Virus record (IMG/VR): IMGVR_UViG_3300036770_001423
Location: 30,297-94,296 of that record
Length of the DNA stretch: 64,000 bases
From: a virus
Strand: one strand, 5' to 3'
In this document: in pieces, positions 3,588-46,533 of the stretch
Position numbering within the stretch: position 1 is the first letter of the stretch
How the letters are laid out: every line of letters begins with the position of its first letter
Position numbers and translations under genes: made by a program
Notes under the pieces: generated by a model
Seen by the model: the letters and a program-made list of their open reading frames with translations, nothing else
Database searches by the model: none
What the model was told of the DNA's origin: nothing

Positions 3588-5594
3588 TTATGAATTAAGG
3601 TCATATTGCGCTTTGATTGTGGGATCGTTGAGAGCGGTTAGTTTTGGGACTGTGTAGGTTTTGATTGTATTCAATGCGTTTAGGGCTGAGGCTGCGCAGT
3701 CGGCTACGTCATCCTTGTACCGCTTTGTGCTACGCTCCCCTGAAAACTGTTCTAGACTTTGTAGATAAAATTCCAGTGTCGCAGCATCAAATGTGCTTGC
3801 TACAATCTTGACTAGACCATTCTCACAAGCAGAAGCAAAAGGAGCAAACTTTGTCATCTTAGATTTGTTACTCGGCATAGGATCTGCTTTAACAACATAA
3901 CCTTTACCTATTAATTTCTTAGAAGACTCAATGAACTCATACTTACCTGCCGCAGAAGGATCTTTTGGAAAGATTATTGTAACATCAGTGCCGTCATGTG
4001 CTGCTTGTAGCTCTATGAGGTTATCTCGCTCACCTACAGTCTTTCTAACTACTCCGAGAACTTTACTGTCTGGATCTTTAAAACTTGGGTGAAAGTCGCC
4101 AAAGATATAGTAATAACCCTCTTTATCTTTAGCCATACCTATCTGTGCTGTGTAGTCTGGACTTGGTTCTTTGTCTGAAGGCGCAGTTCCTGCTTTATCA
4201 TAAGCCCTAACGCATTTTGCACCAAGAGGAATCTTGTCAGCAATAGCACACCACTTTCTATCGAAGTACAAGCTATTAGAAGGGCGTACTTTCCAGTTAC
4301 CATCCAACAATCTCGCTCTGTCGATAGGGTTCAAACCTTCCAACCATGCTAAATAATCAGGGTTCTGTTCTAGCATCTTAGGGTTGTCCCTAATTGTGCT
4401 ACCGATAAAACTGAAACTGATTGGTTTTACGTTATCACCATATGTAGCTTTTAATTCTTCTGGCGTATCTGCCCAGAAGTATTGACCGCCTTGTAAAATG
4501 AACCAGCGTATTACACCAGCCCTTTCTTCGATAGGGAAACCTTCGTCATCTAACCACCAAGAAATCATCTCTGCTATCTTGTGGTCGGGATCAGGGTTGC
4601 AACTGATCACCATTCGTGAAGGGTATTTGGACTCGGAACGCATCCGAGACATCAGATATTCTATTTGTGACCAATCGAATTGCGTACCTTCCGAAGTGTT
4701 CAATAAGGTTCGTTAATCCTTACCAGCAGCACTACCTGCTTCTGCATGTCGCCATGCAGACCTGACTATATCATCACCCCATTAGGGTGTCTCCCGTTTC
4801 CACTCACTTGAGTGTACGCCTTTCGGCTAGTCGATGAACGTTCTCCGTTAGGAGCTTCGCTGCTGATTGTCTCTGTGAGAGTTCCCAGCAATTAGAGAGA
4901 TTATTCGACACATATTACTACGTGAAGCGACTATTTTACAAATCGAACGCAATGAATGTATACTGTAAGCCTTGGTGATTGTACTTGTCTTTTTCTGTCT
5001 CCATGTGAGACCATTTCATTTTAAAACCAGTAGGAAACTTAGCTTCTAATGAATGCTCTGACATACGAGGACGGAGTTCTGTGGGTAGCTGCATATACAT
5101 ATTACGTGCAGTATCAAATACGCCACCAAGACCTTTGATTTGAACTGTTGTTCTGCGGAATACAATTGCGTTTGCTTTTGGGTCATCTACATAAAGCAAA
5201 GGGAGCATTTGTAATAGGAAACTTTTGCCGGAACCGGCTGCCAAATATTATGTAGTCGCTACACTACTCTGCCTTTTCAAGCAGGATCGGGTCATATCTT
5301 CATCCCAGAGGGAGTCTACCGTTTCGGATAATCAATCGCTTATTACCCTACGCCCTGACAAGGGCTGACCTCCACACACGCCATTACGCTTGGCTCGGTA
5401 TTAGCATAGAGCGTAGCCCCTTAGCTTTCACCGAATTAGATAGATTCTTAGATACACATTACTGTGTTCTGTGGCGCAAGTTCACCACCCATGATTAAAA
5501 TTTGAGCCTTACAATCAACAATCATTTGTTGTTTTTTAGATGTAGGCCCAAAAGGTAATCTTATCTCGCGGGGTTGTTTTTGTTTAGTTGTCAT
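3588..5594 (-). CDS. terL: Terminase large subunit, spliced: join(5594-5484, 5241-4942, 4691-3588), ~504 aa
   Basis: Splicing restores Walker A ILIMGG|AAGSGKS and Walker B FIAFD|EGTQF in frame. SCNPD motif III and nuclease residues AYD, PDYTA, KDDVAD are present. RBS GAGGAG precedes ATG at 5594. Confidence 0.9.
4692..4941 (-). mobile_element. Group I intron 2 of terL (250 nt, no ORF)
   Basis: P AATTGCTGGGAA, Q AATCAGCAG, R GTTCATCGACTA, S GATATAGTC. The 5' exon ends in U (CGAU pairs with GUCG) and the intron ends in G. Confidence 0.9.
5242..5483 (-). mobile_element. Group I intron 1 of terL (242 nt, no ORF)
   Basis: P AATTCGGTGAAAG, Q AATACCGAG, P7 variant GGTCA/TGACC, S GAAGATATGACC. P1 is GUGGU/GCCAC with a U.G splice pair; terminal G present. 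Confidence 0.88.
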
Positions 5595-8239: not shown

Positions 8240-8303
8240 ATTATATTCCTCTTACATCCACTAATGTATCATTGACTTCTTGATTTGTCAAGAGATATTT
8301 AAT

Positions 8304-14020: not shown

Positions 14021-14132
14021 CTAAGATTCCTTAATCAGTAACCCCTCTTTCTAAATTCCACAAATACCTATTGACAACCAATCAACAACACTGTAGTCTG
14101 TGCAGACATTAACACATGTGAGGAGAAAATTA

Positions 14133-31312: not shown

Positions 31313-31411
31313 AATATACTCCTTAAGGGGACAAAATACCATAGGGAAATCTAATGAATTTAATCACCCTATACCCTAATAGTATACCATGTTTCTTATT
31401 AATTGCAAGTG

Positions 31412-31853
31412 AAATATCATTTATTTGCAATAGAAATAGAATTATTTGAAGTGAGCTTGCAATAAGGTTTTTGAAACCCTTGTGTGGTAAGGCTTAGAGG
31501 GGTATAGGTCTTAGAATATAAAAAGGTACTATCATACTGCCGATTGCCAAACTATAGTTTATACCAAATATCAGTGTTTGCTGTAGAAGTGTAACATCTT
31601 CCTGTATCCTTCCTGTTTCTACCTTGTGTATGAAATATCCTTGTAAAAATATCCTAATTACTTCATTTAATTAGAATTTATTTGTAAAAATATCTATACA
31701 AAATATCACTACCTCTCCTGTTAATTTTAGATTGAAAATATCATATCCAAAATATACATCCTATAAGGGTATTTCAGAATTAGAAATTATGTATTTGGTT
31801 GTTTAACACGACCACTACTCCCTCCATCATTCTTTCCAATATTCTGAAATATC
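31412..31853 (+). repeat. Eight same-strand AAATATC repeats
   Basis: Copies at 31412, 31566, 31633, 31647, 31688, 31701, 31736, 31847. Confidence 0.75.
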
Positions 31854-32094
31854 AAAGCATTATCAATAAATAACCCATAGCATAGATTATGTAAAATTGA
31901 CTGTAATACGAATAATTATCATTTAGATTATTATTATTCATTGTGTTCTATTGATTAGTATACTTAATTGACTAATAGATAGTAATTGGTAAGACCAATT
32001 GAGATAATACTTAGTGTAATAAGCTTTGCTTCGTGTTAGACAAAACATTCGTTTGTCAACACTCCGCGCCAATAATTACAGTAGTAATAATTCA

Positions 32095-32193
32095 GGTGAT
32101 AACACTTAGTGTAATAACATTTATTGTAATAACATTTATTGTAATAACATTTATTGTTATCACTATTAGTGTACTAATACTTGTTACACTAAG
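32095..32193. repeat. 15-bp tandem repeat TGTAATAACATTTAT x3 within inverted flanks
   Basis: Exact copies at 32110-32154; flanks GTGATAACA/TGTTATCAC and CTTAGTGTAA/TTACACTAAG. Confidence 0.85.
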
Positions 32194-32498
32194 CCTCATG
32201 ACAGCATAGCTGTCATTCATCTAATACGAATAACTCTTATTTGTATTTATACGCTCATAAGCCTAGCTTATTCGCTTTGCATATTGGCCTATATATTGCA
32301 TAAAATAGAGTGAATACATATGCAGTTATGCACTATTTATTCTGCATAAAATAGCTAAAAGTGAATACTCTGCTGAGGCATATCAAGGTAGCACTACAAC
32401 ACAAAGCCCCGTATAATCGATTCTAGAGCGTTTAAATGCTATAAAGATTATTGACATTAGAATGTAAAGAAAGTTGACAGGATAAAGAGAAGGTAAAT

Positions 32499-32527
32499 AA
32501 AAAGCCCCTTGTCGGGGCTTCTCTTTT
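32499..32527. terminator. Bidirectional terminator
   Basis: AAAAAGCCCC-ttgtc-GGGGCTTCTCTTTT. Confidence 0.75.
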
Positions 32528-32750
32528 AGCTGGTTAGCTTATGCCGTTGATCTCGTTTAACTCCGCTTGCCATCTGGCTAAATCTTCAAAATAAAGCCAA
32601 GCTTTTTTTTGGCTTGGCTTTGATAATTATTTTCTATGCTGTAAAACAGCCTGCAAAGCTCTGTATTACGTTTTATTAATTCTGGTTGTCTGTATAGCCT
32701 AGAAACAACAAAAGCCCGTATAGGGCTTTTAATCTTGTTATATTTGATGT

Positions 32751-33507: not shown

Positions 33508-36500
33508 CTATGTTACCGTCATAACTTTTCTGGCTTCTTTTAAGCTTGCCAGGATGCCTTCTGCTTCGCTATCTCTGCAATAGCTCACCATATACCCCAT
33601 ATTGACATAGTAGTCTGTAATCAATTCTGAAAGGCTTTCATACACATAATACTGATTAGCAAATTCACCGTCTACACAATTGATCGCTGTATACCCTTGA
33701 TCTGATTTACCAATGTATACCGTTTTTGTGCAATATTCCTCATAAGCTACAAAAGACAGTGCAATACCTTGTGTAGTTGTTAGCTGTTGCGGTTTTAAGA
33801 TTCTCATAATCTTTAGTCCTTGTTATTTCTTACATTGTGAGTTCTGCGAACATTGTTAGCAATAGCGCCGATCAAGAATGCCAGCGCTACGCAATAACCA
33901 GCTATGCCCAAAAATAACCATTGTGATTCTGTCATGGTCTTTATTCCTTAATCATTAAACGCAACGTATACGCCAGCCAATACAGCACCACAAAACCAAG
34001 TAATTGCAGATTCTACACTGTAGATACCGAATGAACCCAGTGCAACAGATAAGACGATTAATGCGTTGTCGATTTTCATTTTAAAGCCCTTTCAGATTTA
34101 GCCGTTGCACCATTGCCCCGAGCTGATAAAACAATCTTAGAACAAAACAAAAGGGCTGTAAAGCCCCTTTTTGATAAATTATTTTAATTCTTTTTCAATA
34201 CCAGCTATCAGGGTAAATCGGATCAGAAAACATATGCTCATATTGTGCTTTAGTTAAGCCGTTGATAAGTTTTTCTTTCTTAGCTAGTTTAACAGGCCAG
34301 CCTTTTTCCGCTTTGGTTGTCGGGGCTTTGTTACCTGTCTTAACAGCATGAATCCGAGCTTGTGAACGTGTTTTGAAGAAGATAGTACCTAAAGTTTTCA
34401 TGTTAGTTTACCTTTGTTTCAATGTTACGCCAGAATTGTTTTTCTGTCTGTTGTTTACGTTTTAACAGCTTGGCTTGTTTGCTCTGCTGTTGTTCTTGCT
34501 TTGTGCTATCAGCACTGAAACGAAAAGATTTACCCATCTCATCAACCCTCAAGTTTATATTCAAAACGTTCTACCCGCAAACTGTAACAGCTTTTAAGCT
34601 TTCCTGTCAACAACTCAGACAAAATAGTTGTAAAGCTTTTCCGTGTTGCTTTCACTACAAATTGATTGCCTGTCTTATGACAGATGATCAGATGATCTGT
34701 CAATTGTTCAATTTCTTCAAAGCTTAAAGCTTTGATTGCCAGAATAAGATCTAAATCAGATTGTGCTGTTGATTCTATAGCTTGGATTACTGGGATCATG
34801 TTTAATAGTCCTGTAGTAGTTCTTGTAATTGTTGACGTTCTGAGCTTGTGAAAAGCTTTTGCACTTGCTTTGTAGTTGCCATGCAAGCTTGATAAGTTTT
34901 AAAATCAGATATTGAGTCACTATCATACCCGAATTCAGAACAAAAATCATCAAATGACATTGAACCGCTTTCGGCGTCCAATAGCAGACAATACAAAACG
35001 CTGGCTTGTGTTGGCGTCACAGCATAGCTTTGAACAAAAACATTTTTTACCAGTATTTCCTGTTTACTTTCTTTCACAAGCGCATTGGGTAAACCTGTGA
35101 CAGCTTTCACAGAATCAAGATACTTTTTGTTTGCCGGTGATAAAGATAAACCTGAATTATTGATCCGATGGCCTGAGCCAGTGTAAAAATCAAAAGATTC
35201 TGAGAATTTACCAGCTTTTTTAAATGTAATTTGCCATTGGTCAGAATCTTTAAAATTAGAATTGTTACCAGCAACACCAAGCCATTTTACAGAGTATTCA
35301 ACGTTGATTGACTTCAAAAATTCAGCTACTGCCAGATCTTGTTCAGGAATTGTTTTCATTTGTTTATACCTTAAAATTAAGTTTTGTTTGAATTGCGCGC
35401 TAATTATAAAGCGCTCTTTTGTTGGCTGTCAATCGTTATTAATCAACTTTTTCAAATTCTTCCCATTCTTCGATCTGATCTTCTAAATCGGAAATTTCAC
35501 TTTCCAATTCTTCAATTTCAGATTTAAGATCTTTATATTCATCAAAGTTAGAAACATCGTAAGAATCTGCAAAATCATTTAAACTTTGACTGTAAAAGCT
35601 TTGATCGCAATCTGATACCCAGTCTGCAAAACTAGCAGCACCACGACCGCAAACATAAAACGGTAATTGATCTAAAACATCAGCATACGATTCACGCAAT
35701 TGGTTATCATGGTCTGATTTAATTTCATCCTCAAAATGAGCCAGTGGGTCATTCTTATAATTATCTAAAGTTGATTGTTTGTTTTCTAACAATTCTTGCT
35801 TTTCGGCTAAAAGCTTTTGTAAATCAGATAATGTGATCATAACGTTTTTACCTTGTTTTGTTGGCATTATTGCCGTTGTTTACTTATTGCTACTGACTCA
35901 AATTATAAGCCAGCAGTATATAAAGAAACAAGCTTTCAATTATTAAAATCTAATTCGTTGATTGTGTCAACATCTTTTTGTTTGTTGACATATTCCCGAT
36001 CTACGATTGACAGCACTTGTCTTTCAATACCCTTAAAGCTGTTTTTGTTCTCAGATTGAACAACCTTAACAGCTTGTTCGATTAATTGCAAACGATTATT
36101 TTTCATTTTATTTCCTTAGATTAATTTTAAATTTCTTTCATCCTGATGAAAGATTGCTAATAAAATAGCGCCGTTAACAGTTTCAGAACTGCCAACAAAG
36201 TTACCACAAAAACGGATTACATGTAAAGCATTTTCTGATCCGCCGGTGAATTCTAAAGCTATGGTATACCGGCTATCGTCAACAGCTTTTTGTAATTTAG
36301 TATTCATTTTTCTTTCCTTAAAATCCGATTAAAGCCATATAGCCGCCAATTAAACAACACGTAAAGCTTACCGCAAGGCAGATTACATTGTCAACCGCTT
36401 GTTTTGATAATTTCATACTTTCATTACCTTTTCATTTTGTCCAAAGTAAAACCAGCGATTCGAATATTCCACCGGCGCAACAATTCTAGCCGTCCGACTA

Positions 36501-39098: not shown

Positions 39099-40180
39099 CT
39101 ATTCATTTTTCCATTTACCCCGCTCTACACAATATGTATACGGCATAGTTGATTTTGTGGATGCGTTGTAAGCATAAGAAGTTTCTTCTTTAATGCATGG
39201 TCCAATTTCATTTTCACGCAGATCTAGCTCGATTATAATTGTTAAAATTGTCGCCAGATATAAAATTGCTGCAATAAACCAGTATTTCCAGTTTGAGTTT
39301 CCATCTATATTATAATCAATTGTTTTCTTAGCTAACCAGCATTGTATACCAAATACTAAAAACATGAACAATACAACAATAAATGTCACCATAATCATTT
39401 CTCCTCAATATTCTCAATTCGTGTAGACAATACAATAACACATTTCTGATTACGTGGTAAAGCTTTTTCGCATTCAGAGATTAAAGTTTGTTGTTCGGCA
39501 GTTTTAAAACGTTTATTAGTAGATCCTTGCTCTAAACTAACACCGAAGAAAAACCCTAACACAAACACCACGCCTAATAAAAACCCCATTGATGACTTAT
39601 CCATTTTACCCCTCCACAATTTCAAGTTTAACAGCTTTGTTGAATGAAAACATATGGCACGATTTACCTTCATTCAACTTACATTGCTTATAATACAGCA
39701 TTCTTGCTTCACGATCAACCACTTTCTTATATTTCCAATCTGTAGTGGCTGTATTCGCTATAAAAGATGTTAATAGTGCAATAGACATTACAAAGAATTT
39801 AACCACGATCCATTCTCCTCATTCAAACATCGCGTATAACGCTCTACAATTGATTATGAGCCACTTTCTCCTCAATCCTATCCGAATGTATTTGGATGAA
39901 TTATCGTGGCTTAGAATGCTTCCTATTGCGTTTAATCTTGTTGTGGTGGAATGTTTAAAAATACACAATTTCCTCTGTAATCGCAGTGAGTAATCACTGA
40001 CCAACCACGCTGCTCTAATAGTAACTGAAGTTGCGTTGTTGTGATCCACTCAGGAACATCATAACCTTTGTTGTTATAAAATGTCGGGAACACTTCTTTC
40101 TGTAACCACTCATCTACTTTTGATTGGATACCTTCTGTAACAGATTTTTCGTAAGCCAAGTAATCTTTAACTGTAATCAT
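39099..40180 (-). other. Small hypothetical/membrane genes (39099-39398, 39395-39604, 39606-39806, 39932-40180)
   Basis: Packed ORFs with RBS. Confidence 0.55.
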
Positions 40181-40280
40181 GTTTATTCCTCCTACAATGC
40201 TCTATGAGCGATTATTTATGTTACCCTAAGCCAACGTATGGCTTAGGCTGTAAAACGTCTTAGAATTGATTCTAGAGCGT

Positions 40281-40658
40281 TTAAATGCTGTTGGCTTTAA
40301 TCCGCTTCGATGTACGTTGCAACCCTCTCAACGCTTTAGCTAAATCTAATTCATTCACTGGATTCTCAATCATACTCTTTAAACTGTTGAATGTTGTATG
40401 ACAAGCTGCAACATTCCCTACTTCATAAGGCTTGTTGCTATCAATACGGTCGATTGTAAACGTATCTGCTGTCAATGTCAACCCTGTAAAGTAACATTTC
40501 TTTGCCTTACACATGTTCTTAAAGCTAACAAAAGAGATGTTGAAATCAATACCACGATCTTTGCTGGAACGTGCTTTGTTTAGATAAGCCGTAGCAATCT
40601 TAACATCGTCACCAGAATGTCTGTTAGTGGTTTTCTTTGCAGGTTTCTTTGTAGTCAT
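40281..40658 (-). CDS. T4 Srd-like protein (degenerate HNH fold)
   Basis: SSKDRGIDFNIS...CYFTG...TIDRIDS...Y..GNV.ACH..FN.LKS. Confidence 0.65.
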   Translation of the reverse strand: MTTKKPAKKTTNRHSGDDVKIATAYLNKARSSKDRGIDFNISFVSFKNMCKAKKCYFTGLTLTADTFTIDRIDSNKPYEVGNVAACHTTFNSLKSMIENPVNELDLAKALRGLQRTSKRIKANSI

Positions 40659-40812
40659 CGGTAAATCCTCATTCATTTCGATGTGAACAACTCTACTCTC
40701 ATCTGTTCCTTGTGTCAACAAGAATTTTAAATAATTCTATAAACGATTCTGCTTGACATGAGATGTGTGTATGTGTAGAGTGGTTGCATGTTCAAACGTA
40801 TGGAGAAATTAC

Positions 40813-42068
40813 ATGAATAATAAAATTGAGAAGGGTTGTTTGGCTATTGTTGTGAATAGCTATTGTCCTGAGAACTTAGGTAAGGTTGTCACTGTTGGCA
40901 ATTACATCGGAACAGAAATCGGATTCTTAATGAAGGATTTGTGGGAAGTTGACAAACCGATGTTAGCATCCGATGGTAAGTATTATTTTCTTCAGCGAGA
41001 AAATTCGTTGATGAGGATTGACAACTACGACGAAGATATGTATACTCTTGAACAGATTGAGCAATTAGAGAAGGAGAAAATGGAATGAAAACAGTAACAG
41101 TTGATGCACAAAATCTGTGGTACATCTTATCTGTATATGAAAGTTTGTTGGATAAAAATAGTCCTTTTGCGTCAGGGGATTTAGCGATTATCCAAAAGAT
41201 GAAACAACAAATTAAAGATGAGGAGAACAAGTGATGAGTGATTTAATGACTGTTTGGTTTGCGTTTAACGTTGTGTTTGGTATATGGTCTGTTAAGAACT
41301 GGATTACTTGGGGTGTTGCTTTCTTTGGTGGTCACACTTTCCATCAGAACACAGCAGGTAAAATGTTAGATTTAATTGTTCTGTCAAGTTGTTTAGCTCA
41401 ATATTTAATTGTGAATGGAGGTGTTGTATGATTAAGACATTTGTGTTGATTATGGTTATTAGTAACGGCTACAAAGCTGGAGTATCTTCTGTATCTACAG
41501 AGTTTAATAGTCAAGAAGCTTGTCTTGCAGCGCTGAATACTATTATTAATGAAACAAATCGTACCAATTATACTCGTGTTGTTGGTAGTGGCTGTTTTCC
41601 AAAGGAATAAACATGAACAAAGCTCCTGCTGAAGCATTGGAAGAACTAATCATCCTGTCAGGGATGTACCGTGTACAGCTTGGATTGGTGGCTAAGCTTT
41701 CAGGGGCTATCTTAGCTAATGATAAACACAGAGCTAAGAAGTTGTGGAGTGAGATGACAGAAATTAAGAGTTATCTTTGTGACATATTCACTTGTGATAT
41801 TGAGGAATATTTGTTTAGTTACTCATGAATAGCCGTCCATACGGCTTCCATTTAACAATAACCATGATACACTATAAGTGTAGGAGGAAAGATTATGCAA
41901 GTAAAAATTCATTGGCCTAACGGTGATTATCACACGAAATCAACTTTCAGCACTACTGGTGAACACACGGATTTATTAGTGTTAGCCATGCGAGATGTAT
42001 TGGTTCTGTCATTGACATACGATGTGATTATTGACAATGGCGTAATTACTTTTGTTGAGAAGGCTTGA
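40813..42068 (+). other. Small hypothetical genes (40813-41088, 41085-41234, 41231-41431, 41428-41610, 41613-41828, 41895-42068)
   Basis: Packed ORFs downstream of TTGACA 40754. Confidence 0.55.
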
Positions 42069-42099
42069 CAACCGAGTAAAAGGTGGTAATATCTACCAC
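42065..42099 (+). promoter_or_regulatory. Sigma70-like promoter
   Basis: TTGACA-16-TAATAT with extended TG; the -10 element lies inside the GTGGTA/TACCAC dyad. Confidence 0.65.
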
Positions 42100-42109
42100 A
42101 AGTAAGTAG

Positions 42110-42595
42110 TTTTAAATTATCTGTTGGGTTCACAACACTGACGTTTTCTTAGCGGAGAACGTCAAAGCCTCTAAGGTTTGAGCTAAATACAAATCCGCTA
42201 TACAGTAAAGCACTCCCTGATTCACAGTGACATCCTGTAGTTATAAGTAGTGAACGTAGGCAATTACATACAAGGTCTTAAGACGGACTCCGAATCAGCG
42301 ACAATACAACCTTCTTTGGTGAGTTATTCGGATAAACACAATTTAAAGGGTGATGGTTTCCTGCTCCAATTGATTATTCATTATCAAAGGCAGGCTATGC
42401 AGGGTGGTGGCTTCCCTCCAGAGATAACAGATCGTAATGTGATTCTCTAGACAATTAGCATCGTGATAAATTGTATGTAATATATCTCATATAGATTAGA
42501 TAATAGCTGATAAAGATACAGGCGAACAGAGCGTAATAGCTAAGGGCTTTTCCTTACTATCACCCTATCGTCTAATGAACAGATCCGTCCAAAAT
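42110..42595 (+). ncRNA. Putative large structured RNA upstream of an HNH gene
   Basis: No ORF with an RBS; many helices, long-range pairs and pseudoknots; G.U pairs favour the plus strand. Confidence 0.55.
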
Positions 42596-42606
42596 TTGAG
42601 GTATGT

Positions 42607-43371
42607 ATGGAAACAATTAATTTATATGATTATTTAGAATTGAGAGGTGCGAGAGCCTTATCTGATGCAGAAGCTGAAGTCTTAGGTGTTGAGCTAGTTT
42701 CAGGCTGGGTGAAGAAAGCTAATGCTATAAAAATAGACAAAATAACGGCAGTACAGGCACTGTTATACGGAGCTAAAAGTAAGTCAAATAACACTTCTCG
42801 CATGAAAACAATAGCTGAAGGTTTATTGGCTGGGAAAAACTTTAGTGATTTCATAGAAGTTACTGGTCTTGATAGACACGTAAAGAAGGTAAAAGCGCCT
42901 AAAGTAAAACGTTGTAAGATGAAGCCGAGTAACGTAATAAAGAAATTGGCAAAGTTTTGTAACATGCCATCAACTGCTGACGCCGATGCTTTGTGTGTAA
43001 TAGCTTCCGATAAGCTAAAGTTTACACCAGACTGGACTAAAGGTTTGGAATTTGTTGCTGCACAACTGTTTGAAGAATCAAAGAAGTACCAACAAGAGGT
43101 TGTTCCAGACAAGTTTATTAAAAAGACGGATGACGATGAATTCTTTAGAAGTCAGGCTTGGAGAACTTTAAGGTATAACGCATTTAGTCTACATGGCAAT
43201 AATTGTCAGTGTTGTGGAGCGAAAGCGGGTAACGGTGTCGTTCTCCACGTAGACCATATTCTTCCTAGGTCTACTAATCCTGAACTAGAATATGACATCA
43301 ACAATCTTCAAATCCTTTGTGAAGATTGTAACATTGGTAAATTACACCTGAAAACTGACGACTGGCGTTAG
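42607..43371 (+). CDS. HNH endonuclease with long N-terminal extension
   Basis: FFRSQAWRTLRY, CQCCG, LHVDHI.P, NLQILCEDCN.GK; GAGGT RBS. Confidence 0.88.
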   Translation: METINLYDYLELRGARALSDAEAEVLGVELVSGWVKKANAIKIDKITAVQALLYGAKSKSNNTSRMKTIAEGLLAGKNFSDFIEVTGLDRHVKKVKAPKVKRCKMKPSNVIKKLAKFCNMPSTADADALCVIASDKLKFTPDWTKGLEFVAAQLFEESKKYQQEVVPDKFIKKTDDDEFFRSQAWRTLRYNAFSLHGNNCQCCGAKAGNGVVLHVDHILPRSTNPELEYDINNLQILCEDCNIGKLHLKTDDWR

Positions 43372-43458
43372 GTTAAGAGAAGTATATTACTGTATTAGTA
43401 TTGTAATTAGTGTAATACTCTGATAGATTAGTAATCAGAATGAATTGAGGAGAGTGAA

Positions 43459-43882
43459 ATGAATAATGAAAAATATATAGTTGTTGTATTTGATGATATG
43501 ACAGGTAAACCTAAACACTCAATCTGTGGAGGCAATGGAGTAAGTAGAGATAAGGCAGAGTTCATCATGGCTGAAGCTAGTCTACACTTAGACCATTCTA
43601 AGTATTCTCTATTTCTTGTTCCTTGTGTAAATGAACATTTTGATGAGGATGAGTAGAATGAACACACCACAAAACACATATTGGAATACTCGTGATGGGA
43701 GAAAGCTACTGATTGCTGATATGGATTTAGACCATGTTCAACACTGTGTATCTCTCATGACTAGACAGATGGGGTTCACTGTAGTTTATTACAGTTATTG
43801 TCATAGAATTAAACTGTGTGAGTTGATTACAGCTTATGAATTAGATCGAACACTAGCTGCTTTAACTGATCCTAATTTGTAG
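43459..43882 (+). other. Two small hypothetical genes (43459-43656, 43658-43882)
   Basis: RBS present; W.TRDG...I.DM...H motif in the second. Confidence 0.55.
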
Positions 43883-43891
43883 GAGGTGCGT

Positions 43892-44063
43892 ATGGAACGT
43901 TTAGAAAACTGTACAGCTCTGTATACATCACGGAATCGGTATTGAGGTAGATAGACTGAGAGATGGTGTTAAAGTGTTTAGGGCTGTAAGTTTATGTGGA
44001 AAGAAATCTCGCTGGACAGAGAACAATCTGCAAGATTGTATTAGACAAGTTGTTAAAATAATC
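43892..44063 (+). pseudogene. Possible frameshifted gene remnant
   Basis: Strong AGGAGGT RBS and ATG, stop after 17 codons; another frame stays open downstream. Confidence 0.35.
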
Positions 44064-44121
44064 ATTGACAACACAATTCATTCCGTGTAATCTATACACA
44101 ACTTGAACACAGAGGAGAGAA

Positions 44122-45429
44122 ATGATGAGTAATTACAAAGCAATTATCGCAAAGATTGATCGTGTGGCACCTATCCCTAATGCAGATCGTATTCATTTAG
44201 CCACAGTGCTTGGTGAGTCTGTGATTGTGAGTAAAGAGTGGGAAGTAGGTAAAATTGGTGTGTTGTTTGTAGCAGGTACACAGTTGTCTGAGGCATTTGC
44301 ATCAAATAACAACTTGTTCCGTGATTCTGAAAAGAACGCAGACAAAACAAAGAAAGGTTTCTTTGAAGATAGTCGCCGTGTACGAGCACAACCGATGTTG
44401 GGTGTTAAGTCTGAAGCATTCTTTGCTGATTTATCTAGCCTTTCATTTGCTGGTGACATTACAACTTTAAAACTGAATGACTCGTTTGAAGAATTTAACG
44501 GTGTAAAGATCTGTAATAAATATTTAAATGAAAAGACATTACGTGCAATTGGTAACGCGAATACAAAAGCACGTAAGAAAGATGCTACGCCATTATTTTT
44601 TGAACACGTAGAAACGTGTCAATTTAAACAGGGTATGCAAGCTATTCAGAAAGGTGACTTGGTTAGTATTCAGGCAAAAGTACATGGTACGAGTCAGCGT
44701 GTAGCTAAAACAACTGTGGTTAACGACTTACCTAAATGGAAAGAGTTAGTTAATTCATTGTTCAGCAAGGTTGGTTTACAAGTACCTTTTGCTGAGACAC
44801 GAACAGATTATGTTGTAGGTACTCGTCGTGTCGTATTGACAGAAGGTAAAGAAGGTTTTCATGGTTCTGAGCAGTTCCGCTATGAAATTCTTGAACAACT
44901 TAAACCGTACTTAACAGACGGGATGACTTTGTATCTTGAAGTTGCTGGTTACGCTAATGGTAAACCGATTATGTCTCGACACAACACAAAAGATTTGAAG
45001 AACAAAGAAATTAGTAAGAAATACGGTGACGTAGTAACATACTCGTATGGTTGTAAAGAACATGAAAACCGTGTACACGTATATCGTATTACGATTACTC
45101 AGCCTGACGGAACAGCTTTAGATTTTACACAGAAACAGTTAGTTGATTGGTGTAATGCTCGCGGTATTTTACCGGCGTTGGATGTGGTAGAACCGTTTGT
45201 TTTTGATGGTGATTATGAAGCATTAGCTGCCAAAGTTGAAGCTCTTACAGAACGTCCTGAAGTGTTAGGTGAAGATTTTATCGATCCTAGTCATGTTAGT
45301 GAAGGTGTTATTGTTCGGGTAGATCGCGGTACATTGACGCCGTTATTTCTGAAGTCTAAGAACTTCTACTTCAAAGTGATGGAAGGTATTGCTTCGGAGA
45401 AAGAAGTAGACGTTGAAGATGCCGCATAG
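44122..45429 (+). CDS. RNA ligase (Rnl2/DRB0094-like, with N-terminal OB domain)
   Basis: PIPNADRI, motif I AKVHGTS, EGVIV, KSKN. Confidence 0.85.
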   Translation: MMSNYKAIIAKIDRVAPIPNADRIHLATVLGESVIVSKEWEVGKIGVLFVAGTQLSEAFASNNNLFRDSEKNADKTKKGFFEDSRRVRAQPMLGVKSEAFFADLSSLSFAGDITTLKLNDSFEEFNGVKICNKYLNEKTLRAIGNANTKARKKDATPLFFEHVETCQFKQGMQAIQKGDLVSIQAKVHGTSQRVAKTTVVNDLPKWKELVNSLFSKVGLQVPFAETRTDYVVGTRRVVLTEGKEGFHGSEQFRYEILEQLKPYLTDGMTLYLEVAGYANGKPIMSRHNTKDLKNKEISKKYGDVVTYSYGCKEHENRVHVYRITITQPDGTALDFTQKQLVDWCNARGILPALDVVEPFVFDGDYEALAAKVEALTERPEVLGEDFIDPSHVSEGVIVRVDRGTLTPLFLKSKNFYFKVMEGIASEKEVDVEDAA

Positions 45430-45490
45430 TAGTTGACAACAAAAGCCTAGTCTGATAAGCTAGGCTTCATTGTTTACAGAGGAGAATAAT

Positions 45491-46390
45491 GTGAAAGCAG
45501 TTATTTGTGTAGGGATTAGTGCATCAGGGAAGTCTACATTTGCTAAAGAATTGGTTGCGCAAGGTTGGGTGGACGTAAACCGTGATGACATTCGGTTTGA
45601 AATGTTCTGCAATGGTGTTCGTGATTGGAGTTTGTACAAGTTTACTAAAGAACGTGAAAATCGCGTAACCCAAGCACAAGAAAGTATGGTCGATGGTGCT
45701 AGTGTTATGGGGATGAATGTTGTTATTTCTGACACAAACATTAACGACAAAACTCGTAACTTTTGGATTAAACGTCTTACAGACCTCGGATATGATGTTG
45801 AGTTAAAATACTTCGACATTGATTTGATTGAAGCGTTAGAACGTGACGCTAAACGTTCTAATGGTGTAGGCTACAAAGTAATTACAGACCAGTATCGTCG
45901 TTATATGAAATTGCGTCATGGAGATAATTATCATAAACGTAAAGAAGGTTTAGTAAGAGCTATCATTGTGGATATTGATGGCACACTAGCTGACATGGAA
46001 GGTATTCGTAAACCATTTGACTGGGATAAAGTTCACTTAGATAAACCAAGAGAACACATTATTCGGATTGTAGAAGATTACTTCTTTGAAACTCCTGAGC
46101 GATGTGAAGTAATTTTTGTATCTGGTCGTGATTCCGTTTGCATGGAGTCTACAAGACGCTGGTTATCAGAACACGTAGGGGATTGGACAGATAGTCGTAT
46201 GTTACTTATGCGCCCACAAGGAGACATGCGAAAAGATACATTAGTGAAGAAAGAGATTTACCACAAATACATCGAAGGTCGTTATAATATTGACTACGTA
46301 ATTGATGACCGAGATCAAGTTATCCGCATGTGGGAATTTGAATTAGGTCTGGATGTTATCAAGGTTGGTAAACTTCACAACGAGTTTTAG
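45491..46390 (+). CDS. pseT: Polynucleotide 5'-kinase/3'-phosphatase
   Basis: GISASGKST, NRDD.R, DIDGTL, SGR, DDR. Confidence 0.9.
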   Translation: MKAVICVGISASGKSTFAKELVAQGWVDVNRDDIRFEMFCNGVRDWSLYKFTKERENRVTQAQESMVDGASVMGMNVVISDTNINDKTRNFWIKRLTDLGYDVELKYFDIDLIEALERDAKRSNGVGYKVITDQYRRYMKLRHGDNYHKRKEGLVRAIIVDIDGTLADMEGIRKPFDWDKVHLDKPREHIIRIVEDYFFETPERCEVIFVSGRDSVCMESTRRWLSEHVGDWTDSRMLLMRPQGDMRKDTLVKKEIYHKYIEGRYNIDYVIDDRDQVIRMWEFELGLDVIKVGKLHNEF

Positions 46391-46397
46391 TACACCT

Positions 46398-46428
46398 AAG
46401 CCCAGCGAATGCTGGGCTTTTTCATTTC
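46398..46428 (+). terminator. Rho-independent terminator
   Basis: GCCCAGC-gaat-GCTGGGC followed by TTTTT. Confidence 0.85.
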
Positions 46429-46533
46429 TAACACAAATAAATTAAATATTGACATCCTCACCCGTTCGTGTAGAATAGCTCTCATTGAATCAACCGTGAA
46501 CGCATAGCAGAAAGATTAGGGAGCGAAGCAAAA

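Follow-up and report, generated by a model that had tools for sequence, protein, structure and literature searches.

A putatively exchangeable promoter and leader ahead of an HNH endonuclease gene in a phage genome

The locus described here consists of a sigma-70-type promoter, a 514-nucleotide (nt) leader and the gene of a 254-amino-acid (aa) HNH endonuclease. It lies in a 64,000-nt stretch of phage DNA (hereafter the window), which comprises bases 30297-94296 of a 94,296-base-pair (bp) virus genome with direct terminal repeats (IMG/VR record IMGVR_UViG_3300036770_001423). Parts of it recall several described systems. The late promoter of phage lambda transcribes a leader that has its own terminator (PR'/6S RNA/tR'). 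In OMEGA systems, a HEARO or omega RNA is associated with an HNH-bearing protein, IscB or IshB. The HNH endonuclease of phage GVE2 (structures 5h0m and 5h0o) and gp74 of phage HK97 are of the packaging-associated kind known from cos phages. Free-standing HNH genes of the homing type, such as mobE of phage T4, are small genes placed between unrelated genes, with their own expression signals, and they vary among relatives (PMC2790892, PMC2988022). T4-type phages also carry promoter/stem-loop cassettes (PeSLs), in which a host-type early promoter and a stem-loop are near-identical between relatives, the adjacent genes are replaced and likeness breaks at gene starts; PeSLs are short and occur in many copies per genome (PMC2839356, PMC4122927).

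We interpret the locus, with moderate confidence, as an exchangeable unit of promoter and leader, behind which stands a mobile gene for a protein-only HNH endonuclease, and not as an RNA-protein machine. The first-pass annotation had described a promoter, a pseudoknotted RNA of about 480 nt and the nuclease as a single cassette, a candidate RNA-associated nuclease system. Its anatomy of promoter, long leader free of open reading frames (ORFs) and HNH gene holds. The proposed ribonucleoprotein is not supported: in a related phage the leader is 99% identical and the HNH coding DNA, from the ATG on, less than 80% identical, and the leader as a whole gives no fold signal. The features of the locus are listed in Table 1.

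Table 1. Features of the HNH locus and its surroundings (positions in the window), and genes following the Vibrio phage leader.
Feature	Position	Strand	Remarks
Sigma-70-type promoter	42065-42092	+	TTGACA-N16-TAATAT, extended TG; sequence motif
Palindrome GTGGTA-ATATC-TACCAC	42083-42099		spans the -10 hexamer and likely start site; listed as a minus-strand hairpin
Conserved non-coding block	42021-42609		~99% identity in contigs of three other studies
Three-hairpin domain	42102-42190	+	hairpins 42122-42137, 42139-42164 (11 bp) and 42165-42179; closed by 42107-42112/42180-42185
Leader remainder	42191-42596	+	no ORF, terminator or repeat; stability not above shuffles
Shine-Dalgarno TGAGGT and ATG of HNH gene	42597-42609	+	final part of the conserved block
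254-aa HNH endonuclease	42607-43371	+	PF01844, 2.5e-9, residues 200-243
87-nt spacer 3' of HNH stop	43372-43458	+	ends in GAGGAG, the ribosome-binding site of the small gene that follows
Small gene, 65-aa ORF	43459-43656	+	own GAGGAG ribosome-binding site and ATG
57-aa ORF	41895-42068	+	strong GGAGG ribosome-binding site; without known family
Endonuclease-like gene	40281-40721	-	phrog_3118 (HNH endonuclease, 3e-25)
Terminase large subunit gene	3588-5594		~37 kb from the HNH gene
Vibrio phages 242E40-1, 1.038.O			after leader: only small ORFs
Vibrio phages 1.265.O, 1.016.O			after leader: T5orf172
Vibrio phages jenny 12G5, 1.135.O			after leader: DNA methylase
Vibrio phage 1.054.O			after leader: phosphoesterase; 270 nt of leader 98% identical to 1.178.O
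Vibrio phages 1.003.O, 1.067.O			after leader: tail fibre / tailspike

The evidence for a separate unit comes from related phages. Public sequencing runs from 12 studies contain part of 41900-43450; contigs of four runs were mapped on 40000-46500 at an identity of at least 80%, and uncovered parts were not counted as evidence. The block, which begins 44 nt ahead of the -35 hexamer and ends with the HNH start codon, differs from the window at 7 of 589 positions in run X4, at 5 of 349 and 2 of 258 in X6, and at 6 of 538 in X8 (98.6-99.2% identity). The flanking genes, in the same or neighbouring contigs, are 85-95% identical (differences of 21/215 at 41026-41240, 16/254 at 41616-41869 and 11/74 at 45301-45374, for example) or are replaced or unalignable. 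Since flanks diverged by about 7% would predict some 40 differences in 589 nt, and 7 were seen, the discontinuity is real. We conclude from this contrast that the block is a real unit, with a history separate from that of the nuclease.

Both edges of the block are sharp. On the left, the relative has 155 other letters in place of the sequence between 41869 and 42021; the final 16 codons of the 57-aa ORF lie within the block and its first two thirds are replaced. On the right, X6 and X8 lose likeness at 42609, where the HNH start codon ends, and both have the same unlike continuation. This continuation reads MTLEEYMEIKF and resembles the N-terminus (MTLEEY...) of P0004, a homologue of the window's nuclease, which indicates that, behind its near-identical leader, the relative has another, diverged allele from this HNH family. 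The contigs of X4, X6 and X8 have common loose ends and thus seemingly represent one relative lineage, so that they amount to one pairwise comparison and not three. A second relative (X2, a 16,953-nt contig) follows the window over 40182-41817 and is unlike beyond, which marks the region as accessory. The contigs seen at the locus include one relative with a diverged HNH allele and one that is unlike after 41817, and none of them bridges an empty site.

The same pattern recurs nearby. The relative keeps two other promoter-bearing spacers, 44054-44122 (4 differences in 69), which precedes the RNA-ligase gene, and 46391-46446 (0 in 56), which follows the kinase gene; after the former, likeness is lost at the RNA-ligase ATG. 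A spacer kept beside a diverged ligase gene points to conserved spacers next to diverged genes as a general habit of this phage group. One X4 contig joins 44122 to 46414, and the relative may lack, or have replaced, the 2.3-kilobase (kb) ligase-kinase pair. The body of the block is single-copy, matching only itself in the 94-kb genome. Exact 22-25-mers from the block (three against IMG/VR, one against GTDB genomes) gave no match, and eleven viral loci found through RNA-ligase synteny had only the ligase and kinase in common with the window, with no close relative and no empty site among them.

We lean towards exchange, rather than selection on the whole block, as the source of this near-identity. 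Constrained RNAs vary in their loops and linkers, and a divergence of 1% against about 7% in the coding flanks thus suggests a younger common ancestor for the block. Exchange is also favoured by the edges, both of which drop from 99% to unalignable, the left one inside an ORF as in recombination junctions. A further reason is that the three runs amount to a single comparison. The different histories of leader and nuclease gene, in turn, argue against a co-evolving RNA-protein pair.

The module, 42021-42609, would then consist of the sigma-70 promoter with its -10 palindrome, the three-hairpin domain and about 400 nt of unstructured non-coding DNA reaching to the ribosome-binding site, with a free-standing mobile HNH endonuclease gene placed straight behind it. 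RNA polymerase would start near 42099, cross the leader and the HNH gene, and probably continue into the small genes and RNA-repair genes that follow. No intrinsic terminator was found between the promoter and the HNH gene, and with such read-through the leader would be a long 5' untranslated region and not a separate guide or scaffold RNA. Homologous recombination during co-infection would exchange or homogenise the module and so keep it near-identical. It would serve as a common linker at which nuclease alleles and neighbouring genes are swapped, as at the cassettes of T4-type phages.

Several points weigh against this interpretation. The 514-nt leader is about ten times the usual distance between promoter and gene in this phage, and its length has no evident reason. 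In contrast to the short, multicopy PeSLs, the window's block of 590 nt is much longer and single-copy, and only its promoter hexamers recur. The comparison with a single diverged lineage would fit recent exchange and selection equally, and strong selection on an RNA or DNA function could also account for 1% divergence over 590 nt. An exchangeable module, in short, does not explain either the length of the leader or its near-invariance.

The promoter proposed by the first-pass annotation is borne out as a motif, TTGACA-N16-TAATAT with an extended TG, and a second copy of TTGACAA..G.GTAA lies 34 nt upstream of it (42031-42045). It is one of 38 TTGACA-N15-18-TAnnnT sites in the window, where 6.7 are expected. 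Most other intergenic members of this set lie 20-60 nt ahead of a start codon with a Shine-Dalgarno sequence; the 42065 promoter, 514 nt from the HNH start, is the clearest outlier among the intergenic promoter sites. The palindrome over its -10 hexamer is a candidate operator. The six-fold over-represented sites, which include TTGACA(A) variants, are found for example at 8291 and 9070 on the minus strand and at 14071, 25018, 44065, 45433, 46449, 53672 and 61099 on the plus strand, and many have an AT-rich tract upstream and a gene 20-60 nt downstream. These motifs suggest a heavy dependence of the phage on promoters of the host sigma-70 type.

As had been claimed, the leader contains no credible ORF. 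The interval 42069-42606 is stop-rich in six frames, and the gap 42093-42606 (514 nt) ends at the ribosome-binding site of the HNH gene. Its longest ORF (66 aa, 42250-42450) has a GTG start, no ribosome-binding site and no homologue among 5.8 billion proteins. Neither a tRNA nor, in the leader, a tandem repeat was found. A cmscan search of 41800-43500 against Rfam at E<=10, a check that the earlier annotation had proposed, returned only a chance microRNA match inside an ORF and nothing at the gathering score.

The complementary words that had been listed as helices and pseudoknots of a large RNA are all present at the positions given, yet they are about as numerous as expected by chance. Compared with 300 dinucleotide shuffles of 42093-42606, there were 12 Watson-Crick stems of at least 7 bp (7.3 +/- 2.7 in shuffles, 6% of which reach 12) and 4 of at least 8 bp (1.9 in shuffles); with G-U pairs allowed, every class fell within about 1.3 standard deviations of the shuffles. 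The minimum free energy of the 514 nt was -118.1 kcal/mol, against -115.4 +/- 6.4 in shuffles (z was -0.43 for the plus and -0.69 for the minus strand), and a large pseudoknotted RNA thus finds no support in folding energy. In 120-nt sliding windows, 42060-42260 was stable (z -2.1 to -3.1) and 42180-42600 was not (z +0.4 to +1.5). Within the leader, stability above that of shuffles is confined to the 5'-proximal domain of about 90 nt, 42102-42190 (-28.3 kcal/mol, z -2.65, matched by 2 of 200 shuffles).

The fallback reading of the first-pass annotation, an elaborate translational control leader and nothing else, is closer to the evidence, although the leader sequesters the ribosome-binding site no more strongly than shuffled leaders do. 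The Shine-Dalgarno sequence is predicted to pair, suggestively, with 42275-42280, but its predicted unpaired probability, 0.23, equals the mean of shuffled leaders (0.24), which sequester it just as often. A CsrA-type sponge was dropped as well, the leader having just three GGA motifs. The 5' hairpin region (42124-42164) is complementary, at 16 of 19 and 14 of 18 positions, to codons of the HNH motif (CQCCGAK and VVLHVD, 43205-43253); because the two matching arms lack the colinearity that a single duplex would need, an inverted fragment of the HNH gene was rejected and the complementarity is probably due to chance. An imperfect direct repeat, CTC[AT][TG]ATAGATTAG, flanks the HNH gene at 42486-42499 and 43418-43431, at distances of 108 nt from the ATG and 47 nt from the stop. 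With 12 of its 14 nt matching, it is at chance level for the region, and we do not regard it as a target-site duplication.

In the nuclease itself, Pfam detects only HNH families (PF01844 and PF14279, residues 200-245) and, in agreement with the earlier annotation, no recognisable RuvC domain. Residues ~163-254 form an HNH domain of the GVE2 type by sequence profile (5h0m, E 5.8e-9) and by fold, with 5h0o as the best match (Z 9.9, root-mean-square deviation 4.0, 89 residues aligned). The HNH domains of McrA, a retron, Cap5, IscB and Cas9 all follow behind GVE2 at Z 4-8, with no distinction among them; IscB aligns over its HNH part alone (Z 6.1), level with McrA, Cap5 and the retron. Residues 1-165 contain two predicted helical regions (predicted local distance difference test, pLDDT, mostly 65-85) and have no family and no credible fold match, with no Foldseek match in the PDB at E<=0.001. 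For residues 1-170, Protein Atlas gave no usable match, and an exhaustive search of 1.84 billion representatives gave three matches, namely a 96%-identical fragment, P0001 and one low-complexity sequence. The only relatives along the full protein are P0001 and P0002 (~60% identity) and P0004 (~40%), together with P0003 and P0104, and a larger family of ~160-aa proteins matches it over residues ~100-254. Searches with the protein in IMG/VR matched the C-terminal part only, as did the family alignment in JGI metagenomes among the matches listed. Literature searches revealed no RNA partner for an HNH of this kind. We infer that the protein acts on DNA, with protein-based recognition through its orphan N-terminal region.

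The leaders of homologous genes do not resemble that of the window. Against about 100 homologue loci, blastn, nhmmer and tblastx gave only chance-level matches, and the RNA that the first-pass annotation expected to be shared upstream of homologues was found neither as sequence nor as structure. The gap upstream of 90 metagenomic homologues has a median of ~65 nt, which rules out a long leader as a family-wide trait, and Microcystis phage Mwe-JY08 has no gap at all. One gap of 877 nt, in the metagenomic phage contig L006, is explained by two tRNA genes (Arg-TCT and Met-CAT, L006:997-1178); the contig is another case of this HNH family adjoining conserved non-coding genes. Among cultured phages, unannotated gaps precede the nearest HNH homologues, those of Vibrio phages 2.095.A (524 nt), 1.178.O (459 nt) and 1.276.O (467 nt) and of Sulfitobacter phiGT1 (641 nt). 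Pairwise local alignment of the window leader with the Vibrio, Sulfitobacter and L008 leaders revealed nothing beyond one 18-mer, AATTAGCATCGTGA[T/C]AAA, shared at 17 of 18 positions by the window (42453-42470) and Vibrio phage 2.095.A (L106:3426-3443; local score z 5.2), where it stands immediately upstream of the leader promoter. This 18-mer may be due to chance or may be a common protein-binding site.

The Vibrio gaps are homologous to one another (L107:1715-2182, L108:1707-2182, L106:3436-3949 and L116-L124). They contain an invariant sigma-70 promoter, TTGCAT-N17-TATAAT, set in a CCCCACT/AGTGGG inverted repeat. A long hairpin with a T-run follows ~120-150 nt downstream, in which 11 of 13 predicted pairs show double changes that keep the pairing. 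After the hairpin comes a conserved box, CACTCCAAGTCGCTAA..TTAGCGC, and then a variable tail of 250-500 nt (the 3' half). This leader is present in 317 phage records, also without HNH or before other genes, and the gene that follows it differs from phage to phage (Table 1). These differing first genes mark the Vibrio leader as a regulatory unit in its own right, followed by a site for variable cargo, HNH being one of several optional kinds. The Vibrio unit looks like a terminated late leader of the lambda PR'/6S type with a cargo hot spot behind. The window, too, has a strong, constitutive-looking promoter and then a structured 5' leader before a gene block, and the Vibrio counterpart is built exactly so, but the window leader lacks an intrinsic terminator. 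Because this is so and only the 18-mer is common to the two, we treat the comparison between Vibrio and the window as analogy and not homology.

The nearest described genes share only part of this anatomy. Like free-standing homing-type genes, the nuclease gene is a small intergenic HNH gene (PF01844, 2.5e-9) with its own ribosome-binding site and an upstream promoter, it lies between unrelated genes and varies among relatives, and the genome around it is rich in introns and other endonucleases; unlike them, it has an unusual 514-nt leader and encodes an HNH of the GVE2/HK97 gp74 kind, not the I-HmuI kind. The GVE2 HNH is the best match, in sequence and fold, to residues 163-254, but the window protein has 165 extra N-terminal residues, and its gene is not by the terminase or portal genes, as that of a packaging HNH, but adjoins small ORFs, an RNA ligase and a polynucleotide kinase. 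A group I intron with an HNH ORF does not fit: there is no RF00028 match at the locus even at E<=10, the upstream 57-aa ORF ends at its own stop and the downstream 65-aa ORF has its own ribosome-binding site and ATG. Several group I introns are present elsewhere in the genome, where RF00028 matches at four sites, none of them at the HNH locus.

The near-identity of the block in contigs of other studies leaves room for a functional non-coding element. A non-coding RNA gene of its own (regulatory, decoy or anti-defence), expressed from the 42065 promoter, with the HNH gene as a homing-type passenger beside a conserved target, is a tentative alternative that we think rather unlikely. Its promoter is canonical but no translatable sequence follows for 514 nt, in contrast with most of its intergenic sisters, which lie 20-60 nt before genes; the block stays ~99% conserved as its flanks diverge, its GC skew agrees with the plus-strand genes, its 5' domain is significantly stable, and sequencing runs from 12 studies, most of them on freshwater, contain it, a much wider distribution than that of the window's HNH allele. 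Yet no signal for a 3' end was found, some 400 of the 514 nt are no stabler than shuffles and no Rfam family matches. In contigs from RNA libraries the depth over the block is like that of the rest of the phage, which is uninformative on transcription and gives no sign of a distinct RNA. A bolder form of this idea, which we consider unlikely, makes the 590-nt block the gene for a new long phage non-coding RNA, near-invariant across freshwater and subsurface lineages and functioning with or without adjacent orphan-domain HNH nucleases, which would have settled there owing to its conservation. The sharp edges, with flanks too diverged to align, the position of the left edge inside an ORF, more like a recombination junction than a gene boundary, and the two different alleles of one HNH family at the same place would also suit an element acting as DNA: a recognition or cleavage region for HNH homing with its co-conversion tract, or a recombination hot spot or replication element, kept identical by gene conversion. 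Gene conversion of neighbouring DNA has precedent among free-standing endonucleases (PMC2790892, PMC2988022). Homing, however, usually copies the nuclease gene along with its flanks, whereas the block is followed by different nuclease genes; it also lacks iterons, tandem repeats and any AT-rich tract, and the GC-skew switch lies outside it, at 40.5 kb. We regard such an element as distinctly unlikely.

A decayed gene remnant without present function would account for the gene-like length of the stretch and for its GC content of 0.39, which is that of the genome. It is nonetheless very improbable, as neutral junk would not hold 99% identity beside genes diverged by 5-15%, barring recent exchange; moreover, no translated similarity was found in the homologue loci compared and the longest ORF has no homologue. 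We give hardly any credence to the ribonucleoprotein of the first-pass annotation, a pairing of the HNH protein with a leader RNA that acts as guide, scaffold or ribozyme, after the manner of HEARO or omega RNA with IscB or IshB. As in OMEGA loci, an RNA-sized, ORF-free stretch stands directly 5' of the HNH gene, whose strand it shares; two lineages have a member of this small HNH family behind the block, and the N-terminal 170 aa are orphan. Against these likenesses, neither HEARO nor any other Rfam family matches the leader at E<=10, most of its length lacks a fold signal, and the locus shows no transposon sign and no RNA-protein co-variation. In place of the PLMP domain of OMEGA proteins and the split RuvC of IscB, Pfam gives HNH alone, and this domain is nearest to that of a phage nuclease of the protein-only kind. 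Leaders of the closer homologues are unrelated, in Vibrio phages the leader is also found where there is no HNH, and an RNA kept at 99% beside protein-coding DNA below 80% is the opposite of co-evolution.

Around the locus, transcription direction and GC skew flip at ~40.5-40.7 kb of the window, and the HNH locus lies 1.3 kb inside the rightward gene set. The endonuclease-like gene on the minus strand, 1.3 kb upstream of the locus, has further matches to the Srd anti-sigma factor, sigma-70 decoy and endonuclease VII families. On the 3' side, the HNH gene is followed by two small ORFs and then by the RNA ligase (phrog_968) and the polynucleotide kinase (phrog_505); no terminator was found in the spacer 43372-43458. 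The genome had been described as otherwise tightly packed, which is only roughly true: a crude map of ORFs also shows ORF-poor gaps, of 390-690 nt, between 31343 and 34194 (stretches 31343-32750 and 33808-34194). The first of these stretches, which is AT-rich (GC 0.29-0.31), gave neither a tRNA nor an Rfam match at the gathering score, and together they may represent an origin or another non-coding region.

If the locus is indeed an exchangeable module before a mobile HNH gene, it is a further example of phage gene shuffling at conserved promoter-bearing spacers, and it shows HNH nuclease genes settling behind such spacers, not a new mechanism. For annotation, it is helpful that cultured Vibrio and Sulfitobacter phages, too, have long, apparently empty leaders in front of HNH genes. 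If selection underlies the near-invariance of these 590 non-coding bases, the block would be a long RNA or cis element of phages, not previously described and common in freshwater viromes.

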